Shown piece by piece: positions 1 to 19,290 of a DNA stretch of 32,000 bases. The notes under the pieces are model-generated. The model searched no databases and had not been told where the DNA came from. It worked only from the letters and a program-made list of their open reading frames with translations. Numbering within the stretch: the stretch's first letter is position 1; each line of letters starts with the position of its first letter. Location: assembly GCA_019056805.1 (NCBI GenBank), contig DXJG01000001.1, forward strand, positions 120,001-152,000, in the 5' to 3' direction. This DNA comes from Candidatus Baldrarchaeota archaeon (GTDB lineage: Archaea; Asgardarchaeota; Baldrarchaeia; Baldrarchaeales; DXJG01). Made by a program: the position numbers and the translations under genes.

Positions 1-1056
1 ATCAAAAAACTTTTGATAAGACATAGTCCAAAGTTTGTCTGAAGATTTAACGAAGTACTTTTCTCTGGAGATTTTAATAACTCCTTCTGGACAGGCATTT
101 TCACATGCACCACAAAAGATGCAGAAATCTTCTACAATTAATATTTTTGTCGGTACAGGTTTTCTAGGAACATATATTACATTAACTGGGCAGATATTCA
201 TACAGTTTTTACAGCCACTCGGGTCACATTTCTCAGGTTTTAATATTTCAGCTTTGCCAAGAAGAGGTTTTGCAAATTGGATTGCTTCCGTAGGACAAAA
301 CTTAGCACAAATACCGCACCAAACGCATTTCTCATCATCAATTACAAGGCTTCCTTCGATTTTTAACTCACCTATTTTACGGGGAGCTGAAGCAGTGCAT
401 TCAACCTTTATAGCGTCTGATGGACATATTTTTTCACATAGCCCACAATAATCGCAAGAGTTCTCTTCTACTGAAATGGTAATGCCAGGCTTATATTCTG
501 GTGGTTGTGGATCAACCCATGTAATTTTTACAGCATCGCATAAAAGTTCACATAGTCCACAAAATGAACATTTCTCCACATCTATACTTATTTTACCCTT
601 AGCCCATTCTTTATCTTCATATTTTACCAGTTCTTCCTTTTTTGGTACTTTAATGTCAACCTTTACAGCATTGCGAGGACATATTTTTTCACATAGCAAA
701 CATGGTATGCACTTCTCAAGATCTACTTTTATTTCACCTTTAATTTGTGGATATTGAGGTTTTTCTTCGAATTCTAATTTTAGAGCTTCAAAAAAACACA
801 CTGATGAGCATAGAGGACAAGCAACGCATTTAGTTTCATCAATTACTATGAGAGGGGCTTCAAATTTTCCAGCAGCTACTTCAGTTACTGGTCCAAGGGA
901 AATCGCATCCACAGGGCAAACCAATTTGCAGAGGCCACAAGCCGTGCATTTTTCCATATAGAAGTTAAGTTGCTTAGAAAGTTCTGGGGCTTTCCACTCA
1001 TAAGTTAAAATATTGTCTAAGATGATTAGCTCCAATTTTGGTTTTTCAACAGCCAT
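1..1056 (-). CDS. fwdF: Polyferredoxin, formylmethanofuran dehydrogenase subunit F-like (3' end runs off the window)
   Basis: Missing from the ORF track; translated by hand from ATG at 1056 (1 nt after the hdrA stop): MAVEKPKLELII...YMEKCTACGLCKLVCP...KVFD, open to position 1. Eight ferredoxin-type Cys motifs: CTACGLCKLVCP, CVACPLCSSVC, CIPCLLCEKICP, CSFCGLCELLC, CDYCGLCEKICP, CVWCGICAKFCP, CDPSGCKNCMNICP, CIFCGACENACP. Confidence 0.85.
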   Translation of the reverse strand, partial: MAVEKPKLELIILDNILTYEWKAPELSKQLNFYMEKCTACGLCKLVCPVDAISLGPVTEVAAGKFEAPLIVIDETKCVACPLCSSVCFFEALKLEFEEKPQYPQIKGEIKVDLEKCIPCLLCEKICPRNAVKVDIKVPKKEELVKYEDKEWAKGKISIDVEKCSFCGLCELLCDAVKITWVDPQPPEYKPGITISVEENSCDYCGLCEKICPSDAIKVECTASAPRKIGELKIEGSLVIDDEKCVWCGICAKFCPTEAIQFAKPLLGKAEILKPEKCDPSGCKNCMNICPVNVIYVPRKPVPTKILIVEDFCIFCGACENACPEGVIKISREKYFVKSSDKLWTMSYQKFFD

Positions 1057-1057
1057 A

Positions 1058-3442
1058 TTAATCCCCTTCAGTAAATTCACTGCCTATAGGTCCAAGCTGT
1101 TTAATTCTATTTACAAAATCAGTGATTATTTCAGCAAGTCTTTTTCCCTCAGCCGCCGATGCCCCAACGATTTCTACTCTATCAGGTTTTATTCCATGAA
1201 ATTCTAATAATTTTTTGAGATGTTCTATCTTTTTGTCCGCTTTCAGACGACCAGTACGGTAATGACAGTCCTGTTCATGGCAGCCAACGATTAGAACTCC
1301 ATCGGCTCCAAGACTTAAAGCTTCTAGTATATGAATTGGATTAACTCTAACTGAACAAGGAACTCTAATGATCCTAATATTTGTCGGATAATTTATTTTA
1401 TTCACTCCAGCATTATCAGCAGCAGCGTAACCACACCATTTACACATAAAACTTACAATTAGAGGGTATTCTTTCTTATCAATCAACAAAACTTCCAACA
1501 TTTGTGATATTTGTTTATCACTGAGTTCAATTGATGGTTGAAGAGCACCAGAGGGACATACAGCTAGACATGCACCACAACCCCTGCATGCAGCTTCTTT
1601 AATATATACCTTCCTCTGTTCTATTTGAATAGCCCCAAAGTCGCAAGCTAAAGTGCAGAGACCACAGTGAATGCATTTTTCTTCGTCGAACTCTGGAGCC
1701 ACAGATTCTAATTCTAATTCTTTTAGAGATAGAAAAGTTAATGCTCTACTAGCTGCCAATCCTGCATGAGTTACAGTTTCAGTTATATCTTTTGGACCAT
1801 TACAAGTACCTGCTAGAAATATACCACTACTAAAGGTGTCAGACGGATTTAATTTTGGATGATATTCCATGAAAAAGCCATTTTCATCTAATTGTAACCC
1901 AAGAACGCTAGCTAGCTGCTTTGTGTCAGCACTAGGCTCCATACCAACACTTAAAACTACAAGGTCGAATTCTTCTTCCCTATATTTACATTCGAGAGTA
2001 TCTTCATAGAAAATTCTCAGTTTACCGGTTTTACTTTTCCTTATGTAACTTACTCTTCCCCTTACAAATTTTACACCAAGACTTAATGCCCTTCTATAGG
2101 CTTCTTCTCCCATTTTTCCGATTATCCTAATATCAGTGTAAAATATTGTTATATCCGTATCGGGTTTTGTGAGTTTTGTTTGTATAGCTTGCTTTATTGC
2201 ATACATACAACAAACTCTGCTACAATATTGTCTACCCACTTTATCTGATCGACTACCTACACATTGTATGAACGCTATTTTCTTAGCATCTTCGTTATTT
2301 GAAAATCTAATAATTTTCCCCTTGGTTGGTCCCATACTATTTAACATTCTCTCATATTCAGGACCTGTAACAACATCTAGATACCTACCATAACCATACT
2401 GTTCAATTTCCATAGGATTGATCGGAGAATATCCGGTTGCAACTATGATTGCTCCCACTTTAAGGGTAAAACGTTTTTCAGTATCTGAAAAGTTTATTGC
2501 ACCCTCACGGTCACAAATTCCTACACAATTCATACATCCAATGCACTTATCTATGTCGATATAAGGTGCCATGGGAACGGTTTGGGGAGCAGGCTTAACC
2601 ATTGCTTTTCTATAACCTATACCATATTCATATTCATTTGGAACTTCTATTGGACATACTTCTAAGCACTTATTACATCCATTACATATTTCCTCGTCAA
2701 TAAATCTTGGTTTTTTAACTATTTCAACAATATAACTGCCTGGTAATCCTTCGATTCGAATCACTTCACTTAGTGTAAAAACTTTAATTTTAGGATGGTT
2801 ATATGCCATCGCTAACAGAGGCCCTAAAATACATATGCTACAGTCAAGTGTAGGAAATACTTTATCCCATTTGGCCATATGCCCGCCTAAAAAACCGGAC
2901 TTTTCGACCAAATACACATCGATACCCATATTTGCGAGATTAAGAGCAGAAGTTACTCCTGCAACGCCGCCACCAATGATAAGTACTGCTTTTTCGATGG
3001 GAATTTTCAGCTTTTTCACTGGGCGCGAGTATTGAATTGAAGCTAAAGCCATATTTATGAGATCTAAAGCCTTTAATGTCGCTCTTCTCGGATCATGCCA
3101 ATGAACCCAGCTACATTGCTCCCTTACATTTACGATTTCAAGAAAACCGGGATTTAAACCTGCTTTTTCAATTCTTTCTTTAAATAATCTTTCATGCAAA
3201 GACGGAGTACAAGCCGCTATTAAAACTCGCTTAACTTTTTCTTTCTCCACTATTTCTTCTATTTTTCTTAGTCCATCATCACTACATAAGTGTTCATGTT
3301 CAAAACAAACTACATTAGGAATTTTTGACAACTGTTGAATTAAATATGGAATATCAATTACACCCGCAATGTTCGTACCACAATGACAAAGAAATACTGC
3401 AGTCTTTTCCTTAATTTCAAGGGGAATAGACAATATAGTCAC
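1058..3442 (-). CDS. hdrA: Heterodisulfide reductase subunit A fused to a C-terminal MvhD ([2Fe-2S]) domain
   Basis: N-terminal CHCGTNIA...LCS...AACTP...REQCSWVH cluster, GGGVAG FAD motif, FPTLDCSICIL, inserted ferredoxin domain, QCVGSR...CSRVCCMYAIK, C-terminal 2x[4Fe-4S], then MvhD motifs CKWCGYAAAD / RVPCSVRV / GCHEQDCHY. GTG start directly after the upstream stop. Confidence 0.93.
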   Translation of the reverse strand: MTILSIPLEIKEKTAVFLCHCGTNIAGVIDIPYLIQQLSKIPNVVCFEHEHLCSDDGLRKIEEIVEKEKVKRVLIAACTPSLHERLFKERIEKAGLNPGFLEIVNVREQCSWVHWHDPRRATLKALDLINMALASIQYSRPVKKLKIPIEKAVLIIGGGVAGVTSALNLANMGIDVYLVEKSGFLGGHMAKWDKVFPTLDCSICILGPLLAMAYNHPKIKVFTLSEVIRIEGLPGSYIVEIVKKPRFIDEEICNGCNKCLEVCPIEVPNEYEYGIGYRKAMVKPAPQTVPMAPYIDIDKCIGCMNCVGICDREGAINFSDTEKRFTLKVGAIIVATGYSPINPMEIEQYGYGRYLDVVTGPEYERMLNSMGPTKGKIIRFSNNEDAKKIAFIQCVGSRSDKVGRQYCSRVCCMYAIKQAIQTKLTKPDTDITIFYTDIRIIGKMGEEAYRRALSLGVKFVRGRVSYIRKSKTGKLRIFYEDTLECKYREEEFDLVVLSVGMEPSADTKQLASVLGLQLDENGFFMEYHPKLNPSDTFSSGIFLAGTCNGPKDITETVTHAGLAASRALTFLSLKELELESVAPEFDEEKCIHCGLCTLACDFGAIQIEQRKVYIKEAACRGCGACLAVCPSGALQPSIELSDKQISQMLEVLLIDKKEYPLIVSFMCKWCGYAAADNAGVNKINYPTNIRIIRVPCSVRVNPIHILEALSLGADGVLIVGCHEQDCHYRTGRLKADKKIEHLKKLLEFHGIKPDRVEIVGASAAEGKRLAEIITDFVNRIKQLGPIGSEFTEGD

Positions 3443-4723
3443 CTATATTTTGGATAATATTTTTCTAAGTACTTCTTCTTCTGAGAACATATTTTTTGGA
3501 GGCTTCAAGAAAGGTTTTAACTCTATTTTCTTTCCGTCAGTTCTTGTTATATATCCACCCGTTTCTAACCCAGTCAAAGTTACAGGTATTGTAACAGAAG
3601 CAAATTCCGATACTAAAGTGGGAATTTCTTCCAACGCTATTGTTGGAATCTTTAATAATTGTTTTGTTGCAGATCTTGGAATATGGGTAAAAATATCTGA
3701 TTTTACGATTATTGCGGCGTCAAAATTCCCTCTTAACAACTGATTTGTTACACTTGTTACCGACGGATTACTAACCGGACTACCGTTAGAAAAATCTATA
3801 GCATAAGTAAATCCTGTTTTTTTCTTGGAAATTAATGTGACACCCATAGAATTTAGATTTTCAGCCAGGGGAGTTACTGTACAAGTCTTCTTCGTACTTA
3901 TGGATTTAACTAGTTTTACAATATTTTCAATGATTTGATCAACATTTATGCTATACATTACCCCAGAACCTACAAATACAGCTACAAATGTAGCATTTTT
4001 TAAATCATGCATAAATGTGGCAAAGGATAATTGCGAAATTCCAGCAACATCATCTTCTGTGGAAGACTCCTGGCTAAAAGCATCTTGGATTTTGCTTATA
4101 AGGTCAAGGTCTTCACCAATATTCACAATAAGTTGATGTTGCGCAATCCTCGTAACTTTCGTTTTTCTAACATCAATGGTGGCAACGATTCGATTTTCTC
4201 TACCCGTTTTTACTATTTCTCCTCTGGGAAAAACAGAATATCTACTAGCCTGTCTTAAATGGGTATCAGCAAGGTTTGCGCCCCAGAAAACTATAAAATC
4301 TGCTTTATCAAGAATTTCCTCCAATTCTCCAATTCTTACTCCGTACTTTTCTAACAATGGGACTGTTAAATGGCAAATACTCGGACTTGTATCAAATGTT
4401 CCACCAATCTTCTCGGCGAGAGCCAACCCTAGTTCAATGGTTTCATTAGTGCTATTTTCGAAACCATAAACTAGTACCTTTTCAGCTGAAGACAATATTT
4501 CCACAGCTTTATCTATAGCGTCTTCTGTTGCCACACTACGTGTAATTCCATTTTCAAAAATCTTTGCTTCTAATAAACGAGTTGCTAGTACTTCTTTGAA
4601 TCGTTTGGTACCGTGACTACATGATCCATACACTTTGCTAATGCTTCCATCAGATACATCAATAACTATGTCATCACATAAAAGCGAGCAACCTGTGCAT
4701 GGAATATCGGTCAATTTTTTCAT
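3443..4723 (-). CDS. fwdB: Divergent formylmethanofuran dehydrogenase subunit B paralog
   Basis: CTGCSLLCDD...C [4Fe-4S] motif, SICH metal-ligand motif, FWGAN, DVRKT and GLETGGYITRTDG align with the canonical FwdB at 15476-16759; the RGHFN motif is replaced by AENLN. Confidence 0.8.
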   Translation of the reverse strand: MKKLTDIPCTGCSLLCDDIVIDVSDGSISKVYGSCSHGTKRFKEVLATRLLEAKIFENGITRSVATEDAIDKAVEILSSAEKVLVYGFENSTNETIELGLALAEKIGGTFDTSPSICHLTVPLLEKYGVRIGELEEILDKADFIVFWGANLADTHLRQASRYSVFPRGEIVKTGRENRIVATIDVRKTKVTRIAQHQLIVNIGEDLDLISKIQDAFSQESSTEDDVAGISQLSFATFMHDLKNATFVAVFVGSGVMYSINVDQIIENIVKLVKSISTKKTCTVTPLAENLNSMGVTLISKKKTGFTYAIDFSNGSPVSNPSVTSVTNQLLRGNFDAAIIVKSDIFTHIPRSATKQLLKIPTIALEEIPTLVSEFASVTIPVTLTGLETGGYITRTDGKKIELKPFLKPPKNMFSEEEVLRKILSKI

Positions 4724-5199
4724 GCAATCACCTTAATAGCTTCACTATAACAAACTATTTCACAAATATTACAATTTAACCTATGTGGAGGGTTTCTTCT
4801 ACATTTATCTAGATTTAACATCTTTATTTTTCCATCTTCCACAGTAAAAACAACATCTGTGGTTCTAGGGTTAATTCCCTTTGCGACTGCTGGTTCTATA
4901 GCAACATTAGCTGGACAGGCAATTACACAATTACCACAACCTATACACTTGTCTTCATCGATTTGGATAAGTGTTTGCATAGCAGATAAAAGAGGAGCTA
5001 TTAATTCCTGTAGTTGTTTAAGGTTCTCAGCGTATTTGGGGTCGTTAAAAAGAGGAGTGCATTGCTCGAGAGTTACCTCTCTTTGTAAGAGTTTTATAGC
5101 GAATGACATGCAGGTATGGCCGCATAATTTGCAATTTGTTTTAGGAAGAAGCTTATAGATTTGAAGCGGTGTAAGTCTTGTTGACAACTTATTTTTCAC
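4720..5199 (-). CDS. fwdG: FwdG-like ferredoxin with an N-terminal CdhE/RnfB-type Fe-S domain
   Basis: N-terminal LLPKTNCKLCGHTC...C four-Cys domain; C-terminal CIGCGNCVIACP and CRR...CNICEIVC typical of FwdG; stop overlaps the fwdB-like ATG (ATGA). Confidence 0.7.
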   Translation of the reverse strand: MKNKLSTRLTPLQIYKLLPKTNCKLCGHTCMSFAIKLLQREVTLEQCTPLFNDPKYAENLKQLQELIAPLLSAMQTLIQIDEDKCIGCGNCVIACPANVAIEPAVAKGINPRTTDVVFTVEDGKIKMLNLDKCRRNPPHRLNCNICEIVCYSEAIKVIA

Positions 5200-5312: not shown

Positions 5313-5663
5313 TTAAGTAACTTGTTTTCCATACATTTTCCAAAGTTCTCTCATTATGAAGTCTCCTTTAGATTTAACCTCTTCCCACGCTTCCTCTATT
5401 TCTAAACTATATACGTTTTTTTGTAAACATTCGTTATATTTTTCTATGAATTTTATCACAGCTTTCACTACTGGTTGCTGTAAAATTTCTAGTTTTTCTT
5501 TGCCTACATCTATACTACTTATCAAAGCTCCCTCAATGTACTTTTTATTACCAAGAATATCCATCAACACAAGTTTTCCTTCTTCATAGTAGACTCTGAC
5601 TATATCTTCTGCTACTTTGCTTTCCCGGTCTCGGTCTTTTATAAAAACTTTAAATTCACACAT
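5313..5663 (-). CDS. cooT: CooT-family nickel-binding protein with a helical C-terminal extension
   Basis: The ATG at 5663 gives MCEFKVFI...EDIVRV...LVLMDILGNKKYIEG, with the Met-Cys2 N-terminus typical of CooT; GGTGG SD-like sequence upstream. The ORF track start (5672) is probably too far upstream. Confidence 0.7.
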   Translation of the reverse strand: MCEFKVFIKDRDRESKVAEDIVRVYYEEGKLVLMDILGNKKYIEGALISSIDVGKEKLEILQQPVVKAVIKFIEKYNECLQKNVYSLEIEEAWEEVKSKGDFIMRELWKMYGKQVT

Positions 5664-5827
5664 TTTTTCCACCAGTTTTCAAACAATCTTGAGACTTATA
5701 AATGTAAATAGTTTAATTAGTATTGGAAGCGGGCTGATTTATAAGAGGAATTAGATATTATGAAACATTCTACAAATTTTTAAGTTTTGTTTTAGGAAAC
5801 CCTAAAAATTAAACAAATCAACAATGA

Positions 5828-7680: not shown

Positions 7681-8736
7681 TCAGCTATCTAACAACCTCA
7701 AATAATCTGAACCATTAGCTTCAGGAGAGCCTATAAGTATTCGATAGTAGCTAGTTCCCACAGTCCTATTAATAATATTCTCCAATTTTCCCCTTACTTC
7801 AATTTTTTCTCCCTCTCTAGCTATATCACTATAAAGCCCCTCGTAAGAAACAACTTCCTTTATGTTACCATTAATTTTTGGGCCTTCCACAATTTTTACT
7901 TGACTAATCTCGTATATTGCTGGGTTAAATATCGAATTTTCTGCATTTACAACAGTAGCTCTAACTTTTACTATACCAACCGGCCGAAACACGAAATCAT
8001 CATATGAACTGGAAATTTCTTCTTCCACCTTTACTGGGTGTATAGAAAACAAAGTCCCATCAAAAATTCCTCGATTCCACTTTCTTTCACATATCTTTCT
8101 TGCATCATCTAATTCAAGACGATAAAGACTGGATACTTTAACACACCATTCCTTAAATTCAACTTTCGAAAATTTTCTTACATTAGAGGCAGAATCTCGA
8201 TAAAGATTTAACAACGTCTCCTTAACCTTGTAACTGTTGTCTTTTCCGTAAATTATTAAGTCTATGTCAGAGAATTCCACTCTATGAATATTAATAAGAA
8301 TCGACCCTGTAATCCCGAAAGAATTCAAAGGAACATTACTTTCCTTTGAAATCAACTTAACTAGTTTTATAACCTTTGATTCAAGTTCATCCTGCGCAGA
8401 ATTTTCTAAAATTTCTCTTAATCTTTCCTCAGGTTTAAAATGCTTTTCGATATAATCAGTCGGTACAAAAGACATCATTATATTCAGATTTTTATCCTTA
8501 TACAAATATTGCGGATACTTTTCCTTCAACAGGCTGAAAGTTTCCTTGAGCGAAGGTATTGTATAATGTCTTAATACACGTTTAAATTTCTCAACTCCAC
8601 GACCCCAAGAACCAGTTTCATCTGGTACATACTTTAAATATGCAATAATCTTGTCGTTAGGATGAATGTTGCCAACAACTACAAAAAATAAACCATCTTT
8701 AGTCAATAAATAATCTCTATCTCTAAATCCTCTCAT
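7681..8736 (-). CDS. Predicted Pol-beta-type nucleotidyltransferase (COG1665-like), paralog 2
   Basis: GITGSILINIHRVEFSDIDLIIYG (GS...DxD) motif, N-terminal HP...IIAYLKYVPD and a C-terminal OB-like region. Confidence 0.75.
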   Translation of the reverse strand: MRGFRDRDYLLTKDGLFFVVVGNIHPNDKIIAYLKYVPDETGSWGRGVEKFKRVLRHYTIPSLKETFSLLKEKYPQYLYKDKNLNIMMSFVPTDYIEKHFKPEERLREILENSAQDELESKVIKLVKLISKESNVPLNSFGITGSILINIHRVEFSDIDLIIYGKDNSYKVKETLLNLYRDSASNVRKFSKVEFKEWCVKVSSLYRLELDDARKICERKWNRGIFDGTLFSIHPVKVEEEISSSYDDFVFRPVGIVKVRATVVNAENSIFNPAIYEISQVKIVEGPKINGNIKEVVSYEGLYSDIAREGEKIEVRGKLENIINRTVGTSYYRILIGSPEANGSDYLRLLDS

Positions 8737-9767
8737 TATTCATCCTCCACCACAACCATGAAGTCCTTGGGATTTCCACCGATAATCAACCTATAATAAT
8801 AAAAATCATTTGATTGAAGGACTTTCTCGATAGTTCCTTGAACAACAACCTTTTCGCCTACACGAGCTTGTTCGCAAAATCTACCTCTAAAAGACACAAT
8901 TTCCTTTAGTGGGGCAACAGGATTTCCCTGTAAAAAAACAATACTATCTATAAGATATCTACATGGCGTAAAGATAGCTTCCTCATCATTGGTAATCCGT
9001 GCTTTTATCTTTGCCCTTCCTATAGGAACATAAATCTTTTCACCATACTTCTCTGTAATTTCACTCCAATCCTTAACAAATCTAATAAAATAATCTCTTC
9101 CTTTAAATTCTCCCTGCATAACTTTTCTTATTTCTGTTTTAATGAACTGTTCAAAAGAAACCTCAGTATCCCTGGCCCTAAATTTGTAAAGTTTTTTTAA
9201 ACCATTTTCATCGTAACTTTTAATGGGAGTTTCGGAAGAAACAAGCCACCTTAAAGCTTCATAGATCCTTACACAATTTGCGGTCCCGTAGACGACTACG
9301 TCTATATCCGAGTTTTCGTCATGTAAGTCTACAAGAATAGAACCTGAGATTCCAATTTTCTCCCAAGAAATTCCAGATTTTTCCTTCAACAGTTTGATAA
9401 ATTCGAAAGCATCTTTTTCTATCCCGGTGAGATTTTCGGAACGGTGTTTCATCTCGTGTAACTTTTTCTCAGGTTTATAATGCTTATATATACTTTCGGT
9501 AGGTACACCTTCTAATAACTGGTTAAAAACAGGGTCAAAGTAAAGATATTTAGGATAATTTTCTAATAAATACTTATTTCTTTCATGAAGAGAATAAATT
9601 TTCCTATAAAATCGTTTTCCTCTTTTTCTTTTTCCTTTCTCGTCTGGAGTATAACGAACATATGCTATTACACGATCTGGAGGATGAATTAAACCCTTTA
9701 CATCAAATATTAATCCCTCAAAGCTTTCGACAAAGTCTCCTTCACGTGCCTTCACTGTTTTTCTCAT
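8736..9767 (-). CDS. Predicted Pol-beta-type nucleotidyltransferase (COG1665-like), paralog 1
   Basis: GISGSILVDLHDENSDIDVVVYG motif; homologous along its length to the downstream gene; TAATG stop/start overlap. Confidence 0.75.
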   Translation of the reverse strand: MRKTVKAREGDFVESFEGLIFDVKGLIHPPDRVIAYVRYTPDEKGKRKRGKRFYRKIYSLHERNKYLLENYPKYLYFDPVFNQLLEGVPTESIYKHYKPEKKLHEMKHRSENLTGIEKDAFEFIKLLKEKSGISWEKIGISGSILVDLHDENSDIDVVVYGTANCVRIYEALRWLVSSETPIKSYDENGLKKLYKFRARDTEVSFEQFIKTEIRKVMQGEFKGRDYFIRFVKDWSEITEKYGEKIYVPIGRAKIKARITNDEEAIFTPCRYLIDSIVFLQGNPVAPLKEIVSFRGRFCEQARVGEKVVVQGTIEKVLQSNDFYYYRLIIGGNPKDFMVVVEDE

Positions 9768-15083: not shown

Positions 15084-15479
15084 ATGATTAAAGTAATTTT
15101 AATAACGGGTAGGAGTTTGGATCAAGGAATCTCTAAGGAGTATGGTAAATTTTCTAAAACATACATGGAAAAAGTTGCTGTATGTGAGCTAGACGCAGAA
15201 GATATTAAAACGCTTGGAATAAATCCGGGTCAGAATGTTAAAGTGAAAACAAAATATGGAGAGGTCGTTGTTAAAGCTGTTGAATCTACTCAAGCTCCGC
15301 ACAAGGGTATAGCTTTTATACCCTATGGTCCTTGGGCCAGCAGTGTAATGCCTTCAACTACGGAAAGTACTGGCATGCCTTCACTTAAGGGAATAGAAGC
15401 AACGATAGAACCAGCTTTGGGTGAAGAAATTTTAGATCCTAAAAAACTCATAAAAACGATTGTGGGGAGAGAGCCTTGA
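15084..15479 (+). CDS. fwdD: Formylmethanofuran dehydrogenase subunit D
   Basis: LITGRSLDQG, VKVKTKYGEVVV, FIPYGPWA, TGMPSLKG; overlaps the fwdB start (TTGA). Confidence 0.93.
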   Translation: MIKVILITGRSLDQGISKEYGKFSKTYMEKVAVCELDAEDIKTLGINPGQNVKVKTKYGEVVVKAVESTQAPHKGIAFIPYGPWASSVMPSTTESTGMPSLKGIEATIEPALGEEILDPKKLIKTIVGREP

Positions 15480-16759
15480 AAACCATAAGTAATGTTGTAT
15501 GTCCGTTCTGTGGAAGTCTATGTGATGATATAGAAGTAGATGTAGAAAACGGTCAAGTGACAAAAGTAAGGCGAGGATGCGCAATAAGTATAGCAAAATT
15601 TACAAAATACGGTGAAGAGAGGATATATAAGCCGAGAATAGATGGAAAAGAAGCATCATTGGAGGAAGCTATAGATAAAGCTGTTGAAATACTTGCAAAT
15701 GCAAAATACCCAATTCTATACGGTTGGAGCTGTACCTCAACAGAAGCAATAAACGTAGGTATAGAAATTGCAGAATTAATAGGCGGGGTAATGGACAATA
15801 CAGCATCTGTATGTCACGGACCCACTATAATAGGGGAGCAAGATGCCGGAATATCCACATGTACATTAGGTCAGGTGAAACATAGAGCAGACCTTATAAT
15901 ATATTGGGGATGCAATCCGGCACATGCTCATCCAAGACATATGGCTAGATACTCTGCAGCAAGTAAAGGAAAATTTGTAAAAGGCAGAAATGAAAGAAAA
16001 GTGATCGTAGTTGATGTAAGGAAAACTCGCACAGCTAAAGCAGCTGATATATTTATTCAAGTTGAACCAAACTCAGATTACGAATTGTTAACAGCTCTAA
16101 GATGGGCAGTAAAAAACGGAGAATTAGAACAGCCGAAAATTGCAGGAATACCCGCGGAGAAAATAGAAGAAATAGCAGATATGTTAATTTCATGCCGATT
16201 TGGAGCATTGTTCTTTGGATTAGGATTAACCATGTCAGCAGGGAAAGCGAGAAACATAGAAGCAGCTGTATCCCTAGTTAGAGAATTAAATAATTACACA
16301 AAATTTGTAATGATGCCTATGAGAGGACATTTTAACGTTACCGGCGCCAACGAGGTAATGGCATGGATAACAGGTTATCCCTTTGCAGTCGACTTTAGTA
16401 GAGGTTACCCGTTCTATAACCCTGGAGATACAACTGTTGTTGATATACTTACACGAGGAGATTGTGACGCAGCACTAATAGTAGCCTCAGACCCCGTTTC
16501 AGGCTTTCCAACCGAGGCAGTAAGAAATCTTGCAAAGATCCCCGTAATAACAATTGACCCTCACGAGACACCAACAACTATGATATCAAAAGTGGTTATA
16601 CCAACAGCTTTGGTTGGAATAGAAGCGGAAGGATCAGCCTATAGGATGGATGCAGTACCTTTGAGACTTAAGAAACTTGTTGATCCACCGCCAAATATTT
16701 TATCGGATGAAGAAGTTCTAAAAATGATTCTTAAAAAGTTAAAAGAGAGGGTGGGATAA
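15476..16759 (+). CDS. fwdB: Formylmethanofuran dehydrogenase subunit B (Mo/W-pterin, Cys-ligated)
   Basis: CPFCGSLCDD, DNTASVCHGP, WGCNPAHAHPRH, MPMRGHFNVTG, EGSAYRMD. Confidence 0.96.
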   Translation: MKTISNVVCPFCGSLCDDIEVDVENGQVTKVRRGCAISIAKFTKYGEERIYKPRIDGKEASLEEAIDKAVEILANAKYPILYGWSCTSTEAINVGIEIAELIGGVMDNTASVCHGPTIIGEQDAGISTCTLGQVKHRADLIIYWGCNPAHAHPRHMARYSAASKGKFVKGRNERKVIVVDVRKTRTAKAADIFIQVEPNSDYELLTALRWAVKNGELEQPKIAGIPAEKIEEIADMLISCRFGALFFGLGLTMSAGKARNIEAAVSLVRELNNYTKFVMMPMRGHFNVTGANEVMAWITGYPFAVDFSRGYPFYNPGDTTVVDILTRGDCDAALIVASDPVSGFPTEAVRNLAKIPVITIDPHETPTTMISKVVIPTALVGIEAEGSAYRMDAVPLRLKKLVDPPPNILSDEEVLKMILKKLKERVG

Positions 16760-18451
16760 TTGGAGATACTCATAAAAAACGGATATGTTTATGACCCGAT
16801 AAACAAGATAGACGGCGAAAAAATGGACATAGCAGTCAAAGACGGAAAGATTGTAGAGTCAGTCGGTTCAAACGCCAAAGTAATAGATGCATCAAATATG
16901 TTAGTAATGCCGGGAGGAGTAGACATACATTCCCATATAGCAGGTTCAAAAGTGAATTCAGGACGAATACTAAGACCAGAAGATCACTATAAAGATGTAG
17001 AGCCAAGAACCACAGTAACAAGATCAGGAGTCGGTTACACGGTTCCTTCATCATATACAATAGGTTATCGATATGCAAAACTTGGATATACAACTGTAAT
17101 AGAGGCAGCATCACCTCCACTAAAAACAAGACATACACACGAAGAACTAAATGATATACCATTAATTGACAAAACCTGCTACCTTGTGCTTGATAATAAT
17201 TGGATTGTTCTAGATTATTTAAGCCAAGGAGAAATTGATAAATGTGCGGCGTTCATAGCATGGATTCTAAAAGCATTAAAAGGCTATGCTATAAAAATCG
17301 TTAATCCAGGAGGAGTAGAACTCTGGGGATGGGGGAGAAACGTAGAAAGCTTGGATGACCAAGTACCCCCCTTCAACATAACTCCACGAGAGATCGTTAG
17401 AGGATTATGTAAAATAAACAAAATACTCAATCTACCTCATACAATACATCTTCATACAAACAATCTCGGAAAACCTGGAAATTATCGCACAACCATAGAA
17501 ACTATGGATGCTGTAAAGGACTTAGCAGATGGAAAACCAAACATACATGTAACACATGTACAGTTTTGCGGATATGGTGGAGATACATGGATTACACTGA
17601 GGTCTGGAGCACCAGAAATAGCAAAATACGTAAATAATCATCCACATGTCACAATAGACCTAGGACAAGTAGTTTTCGGAGAAGCCACAACCATGACAGG
17701 TGACGGACCATTCCAGTTCATATTACAAAGTCTAACTGGAAACAAGTGGAAAAATGCAGATGTAGAGGCAGAGGGGAGTGCAGGAATTGTACCGTACAAA
17801 TTTAAACGTAAAAACTTCGTAAATGCAATACAGTGGACCATAGGGCTGGAATTAGCTCTTCTAATAAAAGATCCTTGGAGAGTGTTCTTAACAACAGATC
17901 ATCCAAATGCAGGACCATTTACGGAATATCCAAGGGTAATAGCTTGGTTAATGAGCACAAAAGCACGAGAAAAGACAATGGAAAGGATAAACAAAAGAGC
18001 CAAAAAACGGAGCGTATTACCTAGCGTGGACAGAGAATATACTTTCTATGAAATTGCCATAATAACAAGAGCTGCAACGGCAAAAGCTCTAAATCTAACA
18101 AATAAGGGACATTTAGGTGTAGGAGCAGACGCAGATATAGCAATATACAATATAAATCCGATGGAAGTAAATCCATCAAAAGAATACAAAAAAGTTAGAA
18201 AGGCGCTTAGAAGGGCAGCATATACCATAAAGGGAGGAGAGATCATAGTTAAGGATGGGGAAATTGTTAAATCATTTGTAGGGGAGACGTTCTGGGTAAA
18301 ACCAACAATGCCTGAAGAACTAGAGAAGGAAATTTTAAGAGAAGTTGCAGAGAAGTTCAAAGAATACTACACGGTGTCGCTTGAAAACTACATCATAGGA
18401 GAACATGAATTAGCCCGCTCAAGGTCAATAACAGTAAATACTTCCCTTTAG
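16760..18451 (+). CDS. fwdA: Formylmethanofuran dehydrogenase subunit A (binuclear amidohydrolase)
   Basis: GGVDIHSHIAG, AIKIVNPGG, HLHTNNLG, HVTHVQF, TTDHPNAGPF, GHLGVGADADIA. Confidence 0.97.
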   Translation: MEILIKNGYVYDPINKIDGEKMDIAVKDGKIVESVGSNAKVIDASNMLVMPGGVDIHSHIAGSKVNSGRILRPEDHYKDVEPRTTVTRSGVGYTVPSSYTIGYRYAKLGYTTVIEAASPPLKTRHTHEELNDIPLIDKTCYLVLDNNWIVLDYLSQGEIDKCAAFIAWILKALKGYAIKIVNPGGVELWGWGRNVESLDDQVPPFNITPREIVRGLCKINKILNLPHTIHLHTNNLGKPGNYRTTIETMDAVKDLADGKPNIHVTHVQFCGYGGDTWITLRSGAPEIAKYVNNHPHVTIDLGQVVFGEATTMTGDGPFQFILQSLTGNKWKNADVEAEGSAGIVPYKFKRKNFVNAIQWTIGLELALLIKDPWRVFLTTDHPNAGPFTEYPRVIAWLMSTKAREKTMERINKRAKKRSVLPSVDREYTFYEIAIITRAATAKALNLTNKGHLGVGADADIAIYNINPMEVNPSKEYKKVRKALRRAAYTIKGGEIIVKDGEIVKSFVGETFWVKPTMPEELEKEILREVAEKFKEYYTVSLENYIIGEHELARSRSITVNTSL

Positions 18452-18453
18452 AG

Positions 18454-19290
18454 GTGAAAGAATTGGGTGAAATAATATTAAAACCAAAAGTAGCATTTAA
18501 AGTACCGATAATTGCTGAGACGATAACTCCAGACAATTTTGCAGGAAAATCTATCAAGGAAATAGAAGATTTGGAAGCATGGGAAGGAAATAGGAAAACA
18601 ACTCTCGGAGAACTATTTGAAATCACTGGAGCTCCTGGAGAAACACCGAAAGACACAAAGATAATTATCGAAGGCGACGTAAAAAAGGTTAAAAAAATAG
18701 GCTGTAAAATGACAGATGGAGAAATTATAATTAAAGGATCCGTAGGAATGTATTTAGGCGAGGAGATGAAAGGCGGTAAAATAACCGTAGAGGGGGATGC
18801 AGATTCCTGGATAGGAACAAGAATGAAGGGAGGACAAATAGAAGTCAAAGGAAACGCTGGAGATTACATCGGAGCTCCCTACCGTGGAGACACAAAGGGT
18901 ATGAAAAAAGGCACCATAATAATACATGGAAATGCTGGAAATGAAGTAGGATGTTGGATGAGAGGGGGAACAATAATAGTAAAAGGAAACACGGGACTTT
19001 TCCCCGGAATACATATGAAGAAAGGTACAATACTAATTGAAGGGGATTGTGCAGGAAGATGCGGAGCCATGATGAAAGGCGGTAAAATAGCAGTTTTAGG
19101 CTATGTTCCTTCAATTCTTCCAAGTTTTACTTTCGAAGAAATCAAAAAATCCTTTAAGATCAAAGGGGAGAAAATTAAAGGACCATTCTACGTTTTTACG
19201 GGCGATCTAAATGAAAACGGAGCAGGAAGACTGCATGTTTCGGTAGAGAAAAATAAACATCTTCAATTCTATGAAAAGTTTCTGGAATGA
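18454..19290 (+). CDS. fwdC: Formylmethanofuran dehydrogenase subunit C
   Basis: GNRKTTLGELF followed by beta-helix repeats (MKGGKITVEGDA, MRGGTIIVKGN, GAMMKGG). Confidence 0.95.
   Translation: MKELGEIILKPKVAFKVPIIAETITPDNFAGKSIKEIEDLEAWEGNRKTTLGELFEITGAPGETPKDTKIIIEGDVKKVKKIGCKMTDGEIIIKGSVGMYLGEEMKGGKITVEGDADSWIGTRMKGGQIEVKGNAGDYIGAPYRGDTKGMKKGTIIIHGNAGNEVGCWMRGGTIIVKGNTGLFPGIHMKKGTILIEGDCAGRCGAMMKGGKIAVLGYVPSILPSFTFEEIKKSFKIKGEKIKGPFYVFTGDLNENGAGRLHVSVEKNKHLQFYEKFLE

Follow-up and report, generated by a model that had tools for sequence, protein, structure and literature searches.

A type of gene cluster known as 'Fwd-Hdr', which combines a second FwdB and FwdD (subunits of formylmethanofuran dehydrogenase) with heterodisulfide reductase (Hdr), was described earlier from Ca. 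Methanonezhaarchaeum YNP3N, and formate oxidation was proposed as its function (Sci Adv 2025, PMC12700198). A similar set of genes, fwdG2B2D2 of Methanosarcina, is constitutively expressed, and its role is not known (PMC2838876). In our search of the literature, only these two papers bear on modules of FwdB-like proteins and Hdr. Here we consider such a module from an Asgard archaeon, Candidatus Baldrarchaeota archaeon. The window that we analyzed is 32,000 nucleotides of contig DXJG01000001.1 of assembly GCA_019056805.1 (G000:C6:120001-152000), from a genome of 1.92 Mb that is 91% complete. The window encodes a paralog of FwdB, which we call FwdB*, that keeps its iron-sulfur cluster motif and its metal-ligand Cys and has lost the Arg-Gly-His motif of the CO2/formate site. 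FwdB* belongs to a conserved clade in which the Arg is absent throughout, and we think there is about an even chance that it serves an HdrA2-type bifurcating complex as a cluster-bearing subunit for docking or relay.

The cluster has the features of the Fwd-Hdr type: a second FwdB and FwdD are encoded with HdrABC, a FwdF-like polyferredoxin, and a FwdG-like ferredoxin, apart from a canonical FwdABCD operon. We compared YNP3N itself by description only, and three loci from Nezhaarchaeales (L020, L026, and L050) have FwdB-like proteins from the same clade as FwdB* and the same gene order. This order is also found in a close relative (L089). Our genome and cluster differ from those of YNP3N: no McrA was found in the genome, which is 91% complete; CooC and CdhABCDE directly adjoin the cluster; and the canonical operon encodes FwdB and FwdD as unfused proteins. 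As compared to canonical FwdB or FmdB (5T5I_B, 8RJA_B, and 7BKB_H), FwdB* has the same fold, the same four-cysteine [4Fe-4S] motif, the same Cys ligand, a FwdD-type partner, and a FwdG-type neighbor. In contrast to these proteins, it has Ala-Glu-Asn in place of Arg288, Gly289, and His290, its cluster lacks FwdA and FwdC, and HdrA2 is encoded alongside. FwdB*, its key residues, and the canonical copy from the same window are as follows:

3443..4723, minus strand: FwdB* (P0001), a FwdB-like paralog of 426 amino acids; the open reading frame is intact, with an ATG start and no internal stop
4370-4381, minus strand: S115-I116-C117-H118 of FwdB*, by direct translation
4370..4375, minus strand: codons of Cys117 and His118, the tungsten or molybdenum (W/Mo) ligand and the neighboring His, by direct translation
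3851-3871, minus strand: P285-L-A287-E288-N289-L-N291 of FwdB*, by direct translation
3857..3865, minus strand: codons of Ala287-Glu288-Asn289, which replace the Arg-Gly-His of the CO2/formate site, by direct translation
15476-16759, plus strand: canonical FwdB, 427 amino acids, with the aligned motifs SVCH, NPAHAHPRH, and PMRGHFN

The residue numbers for the catalytic motif are those of Methanothermobacter wolfeii FwdB, in which we take the Arg to be Arg288 from its adjacency to His290, with Gly289 between them. His119 and His290 are named in this numbering in the literature (PMC11656701).

FwdB* aligns with the canonical FwdB of the same window across its full length (34% identity, E = 1e-85 by BLASTP), and a search of the genome found these two genes of the FwdB family and no others. 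An earlier note on this DNA claimed that FwdB* keeps the four cysteines of the [4Fe-4S] motif and Cys117-His118 while losing the motif MPMRGHFN, and direct translation agrees on both counts. Cys9, Cys12, Cys16, and Cys35 are encoded at 4619-4699 of the window; SICH (residues 115-118) provides the Cys ligand and adjacent His (Cys118-His119 in canonical numbering); and PLAENLN stands where the canonical protein has PMRGHFN. The alignment is free of gaps in this region and is anchored by the invariant N291 and G294, so Arg became Ala287, Gly became Glu288, and His became Asn289, and the R-G-H that characterizes FwdB and FmdB is absent. The GxNP motif is also altered, to GANL, and the Pro of the SDP motif is Ile. 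FwdB* scores 345.8 bits against TIGR03129, just over the cutoff of 327.8 and far below the canonical FwdB (591.9 bits); the other members of its clade, at 242-312 bits, are below the cutoff. FwdB* also matches PF00384, at 27.9 bits.

An exhaustive profile search found 1,066 relatives of FwdB*, many of which lack the catalytic residues. In an IQ-TREE phylogeny of 91 rows, FwdB* clusters with 24 sequences from Thermoproteota, with support of 93 in the Shimodaira-Hasegawa-like approximate likelihood ratio test (SH-aLRT). (Another row, P0080, was chosen as a member of the clade by its pattern of residues, but the tree placed it elsewhere, and we dropped it.) These sequences are labeled as Methanomethylicia, Nezhaarchaeales, Culexmicrobium, Bathyarchaeia, or 'Nitrososphaerota', and the nearest named relative of FwdB*, as judged by this protein, is Ca. 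Culexmicrobium, at 44% identity. Because all 25 members of the clade have [A/V]-E in place of the canonical R-G, the differences in FwdB* are not due to chance. Glu288 is invariant (25/25), Ala287 is at least 90% conserved, and position 289 varies. Only one of the 25, P0010 (SISH), has lost the Cys ligand, and the other 24 keep it. This position is followed by H, Q, R, or K, with His in about a third of the members; for example, those from Nezhaarchaeales read SICR...AE. All four cysteines for the [4Fe-4S] cluster are invariant, and there are 44 invariant columns overall.

The clade is nested within a superclade of 44 rows (SH-aLRT 100), whose other branches are a group with SGH or AGH, which lost the Arg alone; Cys-less sequences from Thorarchaeota; and a set of four that are strongly degenerate. 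In terms of residue loss, the clade of FwdB*, with its Ala-Glu and its Cys, is intermediate between the SGH or AGH forms and the Cys-less forms. The Cys ligand has been lost in the Thorarchaeota and in the branches that we label 'DG'. The Cys-less loci from Thorarchaeota still have the FwdG-like ferredoxin, the FwdB* homolog, HdrA2, the polyferredoxin, and the FwdD-like gene in synteny, while no gene context is recorded for the 'DG' rows. The canonical RGH sequences lie on the opposite side of the tree. At the column of Arg288, every canonical sequence has Arg (100%), as compared to 0% in every non-canonical group. Also, we did not find any clade-specific invariant Arg in the clade alignment that might compensate: canonical FwdB also has R157, R178, and R394, and R167 and R175 are within the predicted interface with a ferredoxin that is discussed below.

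Could FwdB* be a decaying duplicate that has no function? The earlier note had allowed for orthologs with intact RGH, which would imply that this copy is merely decaying, and had raised the alternative of a conserved clade with systematic loss of RGH. The 91-row tree shows the latter: none of the 25 members retains R-G. The ratio of nonsynonymous to synonymous substitution rates (dN/dS) for FwdB*, as compared to L089 (87% amino acid identity and identical synteny), is 0.17, which indicates purifying selection. It is true that 0.17 is the highest ratio among the redox genes of the cluster (in the same comparison, HdrA2 has 0.07, the FwdG-like ferredoxin 0.04, and HdrB 0.15) and that the TIGR03129 score is just above the cutoff. 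Nevertheless, the ratio is far below 1, the reading frame is intact, 44 columns are invariant, and the clade persists, with fixed synteny, in different classes of Thermoproteota. The conservation of the clade and the synteny effectively refute decay, and we give it almost no weight: FwdB* is under purifying selection and is a member of a conserved clade.

The neighbors of FwdB* are as follows, together with the canonical operon for reference:

5313..5672, minus strand: CooT-like protein (nickel chaperone family), upstream of the operon (PF10133, E = 1.1e-12)
4720..5199, minus strand: FwdG-like ferredoxin 'FeS159', 159 amino acids (Pfam and NCBIfam; E = 9e-9 to the FwdG chain 5t5i_G)
1058..3442, minus strand: HdrA of the HdrA2 type with a C-terminal MvhD fusion, 794 amino acids (NF040770 HdrA2, 987.7 bits; PF02662 at residues 662-784)
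1..1080, continuing leftward to G000:C6:119761, minus strand: FwdF-like polyferredoxin, 439 amino acids in total, with 8 cluster motifs (NF042909 FwdF, 257.5 bits, below the cutoff)
L008:15401-15778, plus strand: FwdD-like gene (FwdD*), convergent with the polyferredoxin
15084..19290, plus strand: canonical fwdD-fwdB-fwdA-fwdC operon, the reference copy (TIGR03129, 591.9 bits for FwdB; Pfam Molydop_binding, Amidohydro_3, and GXGXG)

On the minus strand, the genes run from the CooT-like protein to the FwdG-like ferredoxin, FwdB*, HdrA-MvhD, and the FwdF-like polyferredoxin, and they abut or overlap. The stop codon of FeS159 overlaps the start of FwdB* by 4 nucleotides, and HdrA-MvhD begins one base past the stop of FwdB*. 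The FwdB* gene is translationally coupled to the FwdG-like ferredoxin, the HdrA-MvhD fusion, and the polyferredoxin. FeS159 has an N-terminal PF04060 iron-sulfur domain, of the type found in the corrinoid iron-sulfur protein and RnfB, as well as two [4Fe-4S] motifs, and 12 of its cysteines are invariant in the alignment. The polyferredoxin is the only one of its kind in the genome (a single match by tblastn). To the left of the window are the convergent FwdD* and then HdrC, HdrB, CooC, and CdhABCDE. FwdA and FwdC are absent from this cluster, and the genome's single copy of each is in the canonical operon. As for gene boundaries, the 3' ends of FwdD* and the polyferredoxin (L008:15761 onward, minus strand) overlap by 18 base pairs, and the start of FwdD* overlaps the start of the divergent HdrC (L008:14877-15407, minus strand) by 7 base pairs, so one of these two starts may be set incorrectly. 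Genes similar to CooT are also beside the module in L009, L010, L015, L029, and L089.

Wherever the contig is long enough, members of the clade have the same partners: a FwdG-like ferredoxin with three clusters, HdrA-MvhD, a FwdF-like polyferredoxin, their own FwdD-like gene, and HdrBC and/or carbon monoxide dehydrogenase/acetyl-CoA synthase (CODH/ACS). HdrA2 and the polyferredoxin adjoin the FwdB* homolog in all 12 of the clade loci with enough flanking sequence, as well as in the window, L089, and L007, and the FwdD-like gene is kept in at least 12 clade loci. More broadly, in a set of 80 loci that span Thermoproteota, Asgard archaea, Methanosarcina, Methanothrix, and Methanoperedens, 75 have the FwdG-like gene immediately before the FwdB-like gene.

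Some of these loci carry related modules. The fwdG2B2D2 genes of Methanosarcina are another trio of FwdG-like, FwdB-like, and FwdD-like genes without the Arg (V-G-[HNQ] instead of R-G-H). They are in a clade of their own (SH-aLRT 100), across the tree from that of FwdB*, and they are usually not contiguous with hdrA. In Methanosarcina sp. Ant1 (L040, 1825-9604), a pair of genes for HdrA(MvhD) and a polyferredoxin is about 2 kb from a trio of the fwdG2B2D2 type, which hints that the two sets of genes belong together in Methanosarcina. In several loci from Asgard archaea (L024, L025, L027, L031, L034, L036, L038, L039, and others), genes similar to FeS159, FwdB, FwdD, and FwdA are together, and these FwdB-like proteins keep the Cys and have Ala, Gly, or Ser instead of the Arg (AGH, GGH, or SGH).

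Given the Cys ligand and, in FwdB*, the adjacent His118, it might seem that FwdB* could still be a formate dehydrogenase or CO2 reductase that feeds electrons from formate to Hdr. Such a function was proposed for the Fwd-Hdr cluster of YNP3N, and complexes of FdhAB, MvhD, and Hdr do exist (PMC12350162). However, the Arg is absent across the clade, the His at position 290 is replaced in FwdB* and is variable in the clade, and His119 is not conserved. The proposal did not discuss the catalytic residues, and YNP3N showed no growth with added formate (PMC12700198). Also, the genome encodes a separate molybdenum oxidoreductase of 652 amino acids in its second HdrCBA cluster. With the substrate-activating Arg and His290 lost and the pterin-binding motifs relaxed, we infer that FwdB* is not a CO2 reductase or a formate dehydrogenase. 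We consider it quite unlikely that it oxidizes formate.

What has been conserved instead? The AlphaFold2 model of FwdB* is confident (predicted local distance difference test, pLDDT, of 97.3) and is very similar to FwdB chains 8rja_B, 5t5i_B, and 7bkb_H, with template modeling (TM) scores of 0.92-0.95 and root-mean-square deviations of about 2.1 Å. It is less similar to FhcB (6S6Y; TMq of 0.65-0.67) or to ElpA (8RVU_D; TMq of 0.60). In a predicted complex, a domain of the FwdG-like ferredoxin sits over the [4Fe-4S] cluster of FwdB*. The interaction prediction score from aligned errors (ipSAE) was 0.92, as compared to 0.00 for the best control, but solved complexes of FwdB with FwdG exist, so this score indicates likeness to them and may reflect memory. 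In calibration, 58 of 80 solved complexes reached our ipSAE mark, as did 2 of 110 mismatched pairs. The partner had a pLDDT of at least 83, and the runs were in full agreement. Across the clade, 16 of the 33 residues at this predicted interface are at least 90% conserved, as compared to 49 of 393 elsewhere (odds ratio 6.6, p = 2e-6). Since the interface residues are preferentially conserved, the conserved stretch from T154 to G168 is probably a protein interface rather than a cofactor loop. According to the models, the best-conserved surface of FwdB* is its [4Fe-4S] cluster together with the predicted ferredoxin interface.

The residues that would hold a pterin have not been conserved in the same way. 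Canonical FwdB has about 90 columns with conservation of at least 85%, and the clade retains 54% of these, as compared to 76% in the sister group with SGH or AGH. The GxNP positions (148, 150, and 151) and the Pro of SDP (344) vary within the clade, and PF00384 matches just 2 of 15 clade members, one of which is FwdB*, versus 15 of 15 sister or canonical sequences. In canonical FwdD, the pterin is covered by the segment with the 'GRSLDQ' motif (in domain IV). Among the FwdD-like partners of the clade, this motif is variable at its R and Q, and the corresponding segment contains a clade-specific His that is invariant (9/9). Of the features for binding a W/Mo-bis-pyranopterin guanine dinucleotide (PGD) cofactor, the FwdD-like gene is present, yet the GxNP, SDP, and FwdD R..Q positions are variable.

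We also asked which genomes contain the paralog. In a sample of 61 genomes from the class, 15 have the paralog, and 14 of these have canonical FwdB as well; the paralog is in none of the 37 without any match to the FwdB family. These genomes are related, so the co-occurrences are not independent of one another. We looked for paralog-bearing genomes without another pterin enzyme (for the persistence of MoaC and MoeA), but nearly all of them have canonical FwdB. The sole exception, G002 (the genome of L011), has the paralog and lacks canonical FwdB, FwdA, MoaC, and MoeA; it is about 1.0 Mb and its completeness is not known. If a complete genome had this pattern, it would argue that the paralog does not need a pterin.

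The invariant residues suggest another explanation, which is that the active site has been remodeled. FwdB* and FwdD* might bind a metal cofactor, either W/Mo-pterin on Cys117 or a new mononuclear site formed by Cys117, Glu288, and the His of FwdD*, and carry out another redox or hydration reaction at the donor end or the low-potential end of the Hdr complex. Both subunits have lineage-specific invariants within or next to the motifs of the former active site (Glu288 in 25/25, Cys117 in 24/25, and the His of FwdD* in 9/9). The FwdB fold is intact, the FwdD-like gene is kept in at least 12 loci, and dN/dS is 0.17. There is also a chemical precedent: acetylene hydratase has a Cys and a nearby carboxylate at its W-bisPGD site. 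On the other hand, the pterin-binding motifs are variable in both subunits, P0010 has lost the Cys, sister lineages with the same synteny do not have the Cys, and the gene context does not yield a candidate substrate. We regard a remodeled site as a possibility, clearly short of the favored explanation. Still more tentatively, the putative rebuilt site (Cys117, Glu288, and the His of FwdD*) might carry out an undescribed reaction or tune a pterin as a pure redox center. The site would be at one end of a bifurcating complex of HdrA2 and the polyferredoxin, and this complex would trade low-potential electrons with the Wood-Ljungdahl enzymes, canonical Fwd and CODH/ACS.

We favor a docking or relay role for FwdB* on four grounds: the Arg is gone throughout, the pterin motifs of both subunits are relaxed, syntenic sisters have lost the Cys, and conservation is concentrated at the cluster and the ferredoxin contact. 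FwdB* would be the B subunit of a module derived from FwdBD that belongs to a soluble electron-bifurcating complex of HdrA2(MvhD) and HdrBC. The FwdG-like ferredoxin would contact the [4Fe-4S] cluster of FwdB*, and together with the FwdF-like polyferredoxin it would wire the module to HdrA. FwdB* would hold the Hdr complex's ferredoxin wire, in a host that probably runs the tetrahydromethanopterin Wood-Ljungdahl pathway along with CODH/ACS. Membership in the complex and the direction of electron flow are what we infer, as is the status of the pterin.

The outcome might be akin to that of the pterin-less ElpA in the Elp-Hdr complex, of FhcB, or of the C-terminal domain of NuoG. ElpA is a homolog of FdhA that lacks the pterin and is bound to Hdr (PDB 8RVU_D; PMC12350162), so it is a precedent for a subunit with the dimethyl sulfoxide (DMSO) reductase fold that lost catalysis and became a structural element or part of the electron path in an Hdr complex. 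But ElpA derives from FdhA, is truncated, lacks the pterin-binding (MopB) domain, and is paired with the F420-oxidizing ElpB, and there is no gene similar to ElpB or FdhB in the FwdB* cluster. The earlier note compared FwdB* to FhcB (PDB 6S6Y), and this analogy holds insofar as FhcB is a FwdB homolog without CO2/formate redox chemistry, as we propose for FwdB*. Otherwise it is loose: FhcB has about 355 amino acids, no FwdD-type partner, and no metallopterin, and it sits with FhcA, FhcC, and FhcD, while FwdB* is full length, has a FwdD-like gene, and has no Fhc genes in its cluster. In the tree, FhcB also falls on the side of the canonical sequences, provided that the bacterial 'OT' rows are similar to it.

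Several observations weigh against a docking or relay role. A pure scaffold has no obvious need for Cys117 (kept in 24/25), Glu288 (25/25), or the His of FwdD* (9/9). The fold is full length and similar to FwdB (TM 0.92-0.95), rather than truncated as in FhcB (TMq 0.67) or ElpA (0.60), and the FwdD-like cap has been retained. FwdB* is the least eroded copy in the clade: it keeps Cys-His, G148, and N150, and it passes PF00384. Finally, a relay requires an onward acceptor for the electrons, and we did not identify one. The earlier note posed a choice between a pterin enzyme with a new substrate and an inactive relay or scaffold. That framing still seems right to us, and the evidence leans toward the relay or scaffold, with a remodeled site as the possible alternative.

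We did not find McrA in the 91%-complete genome, and the window and its flank encode Ftr, Mch, Mtd, Mer, FwdDBAC, and CdhABCDE, which together point to a Wood-Ljungdahl archaeon rather than a methanogen. Culexarchaeia, which are close relatives as judged by FwdB*, were reported to lack the synthesis of coenzyme M and coenzyme B (PMC9723716). A second Hdr cluster in the genome, at G000:C11:203351-209509 (L090:5351-11509), contains the 652-amino-acid Mo/W oxidoreductase of the DMSO reductase family (Fe4S4, Molybdopterin, and Molydop_binding domains) followed by HdrC, HdrB, and an HdrA-MvhD fusion, and a GcvH-like gene is just downstream on the opposite strand. Elsewhere in the window, two adjoining reading frames of about 345 amino acids each (7681-8736 and 8736-9767, minus strand) have no match in Pfam at E = 1e-5. 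In L003 and L007, a comparable neighborhood contains two DUF166 genes beside a gene similar to F420 ligase.

Annotation pipelines label FwdB* as "formylmethanofuran dehydrogenase subunit B", and metabolic reconstructions of Thermoproteota or Asgard archaea then credit these organisms with the capacity to reduce CO2 or oxidize formate. The "FwdB" annotation most likely overstates the role of FwdB*. The pattern of residues argues against the sole published proposal for the function of such a module, a formate-oxidizing Fwd-Hdr, and it points to a module that is conserved at its cluster and its ferredoxin contact. FwdB paralogs that lack the Arg and are encoded with a FwdG-like ferredoxin are found in Thermoproteota, Asgard archaea, Methanosarcina, Methanothrix, and Methanoperedens. 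What the module does bears on a gap in our understanding of how these archaea route low-potential electrons, and this could be tested in Methanosarcina, which is genetically tractable.

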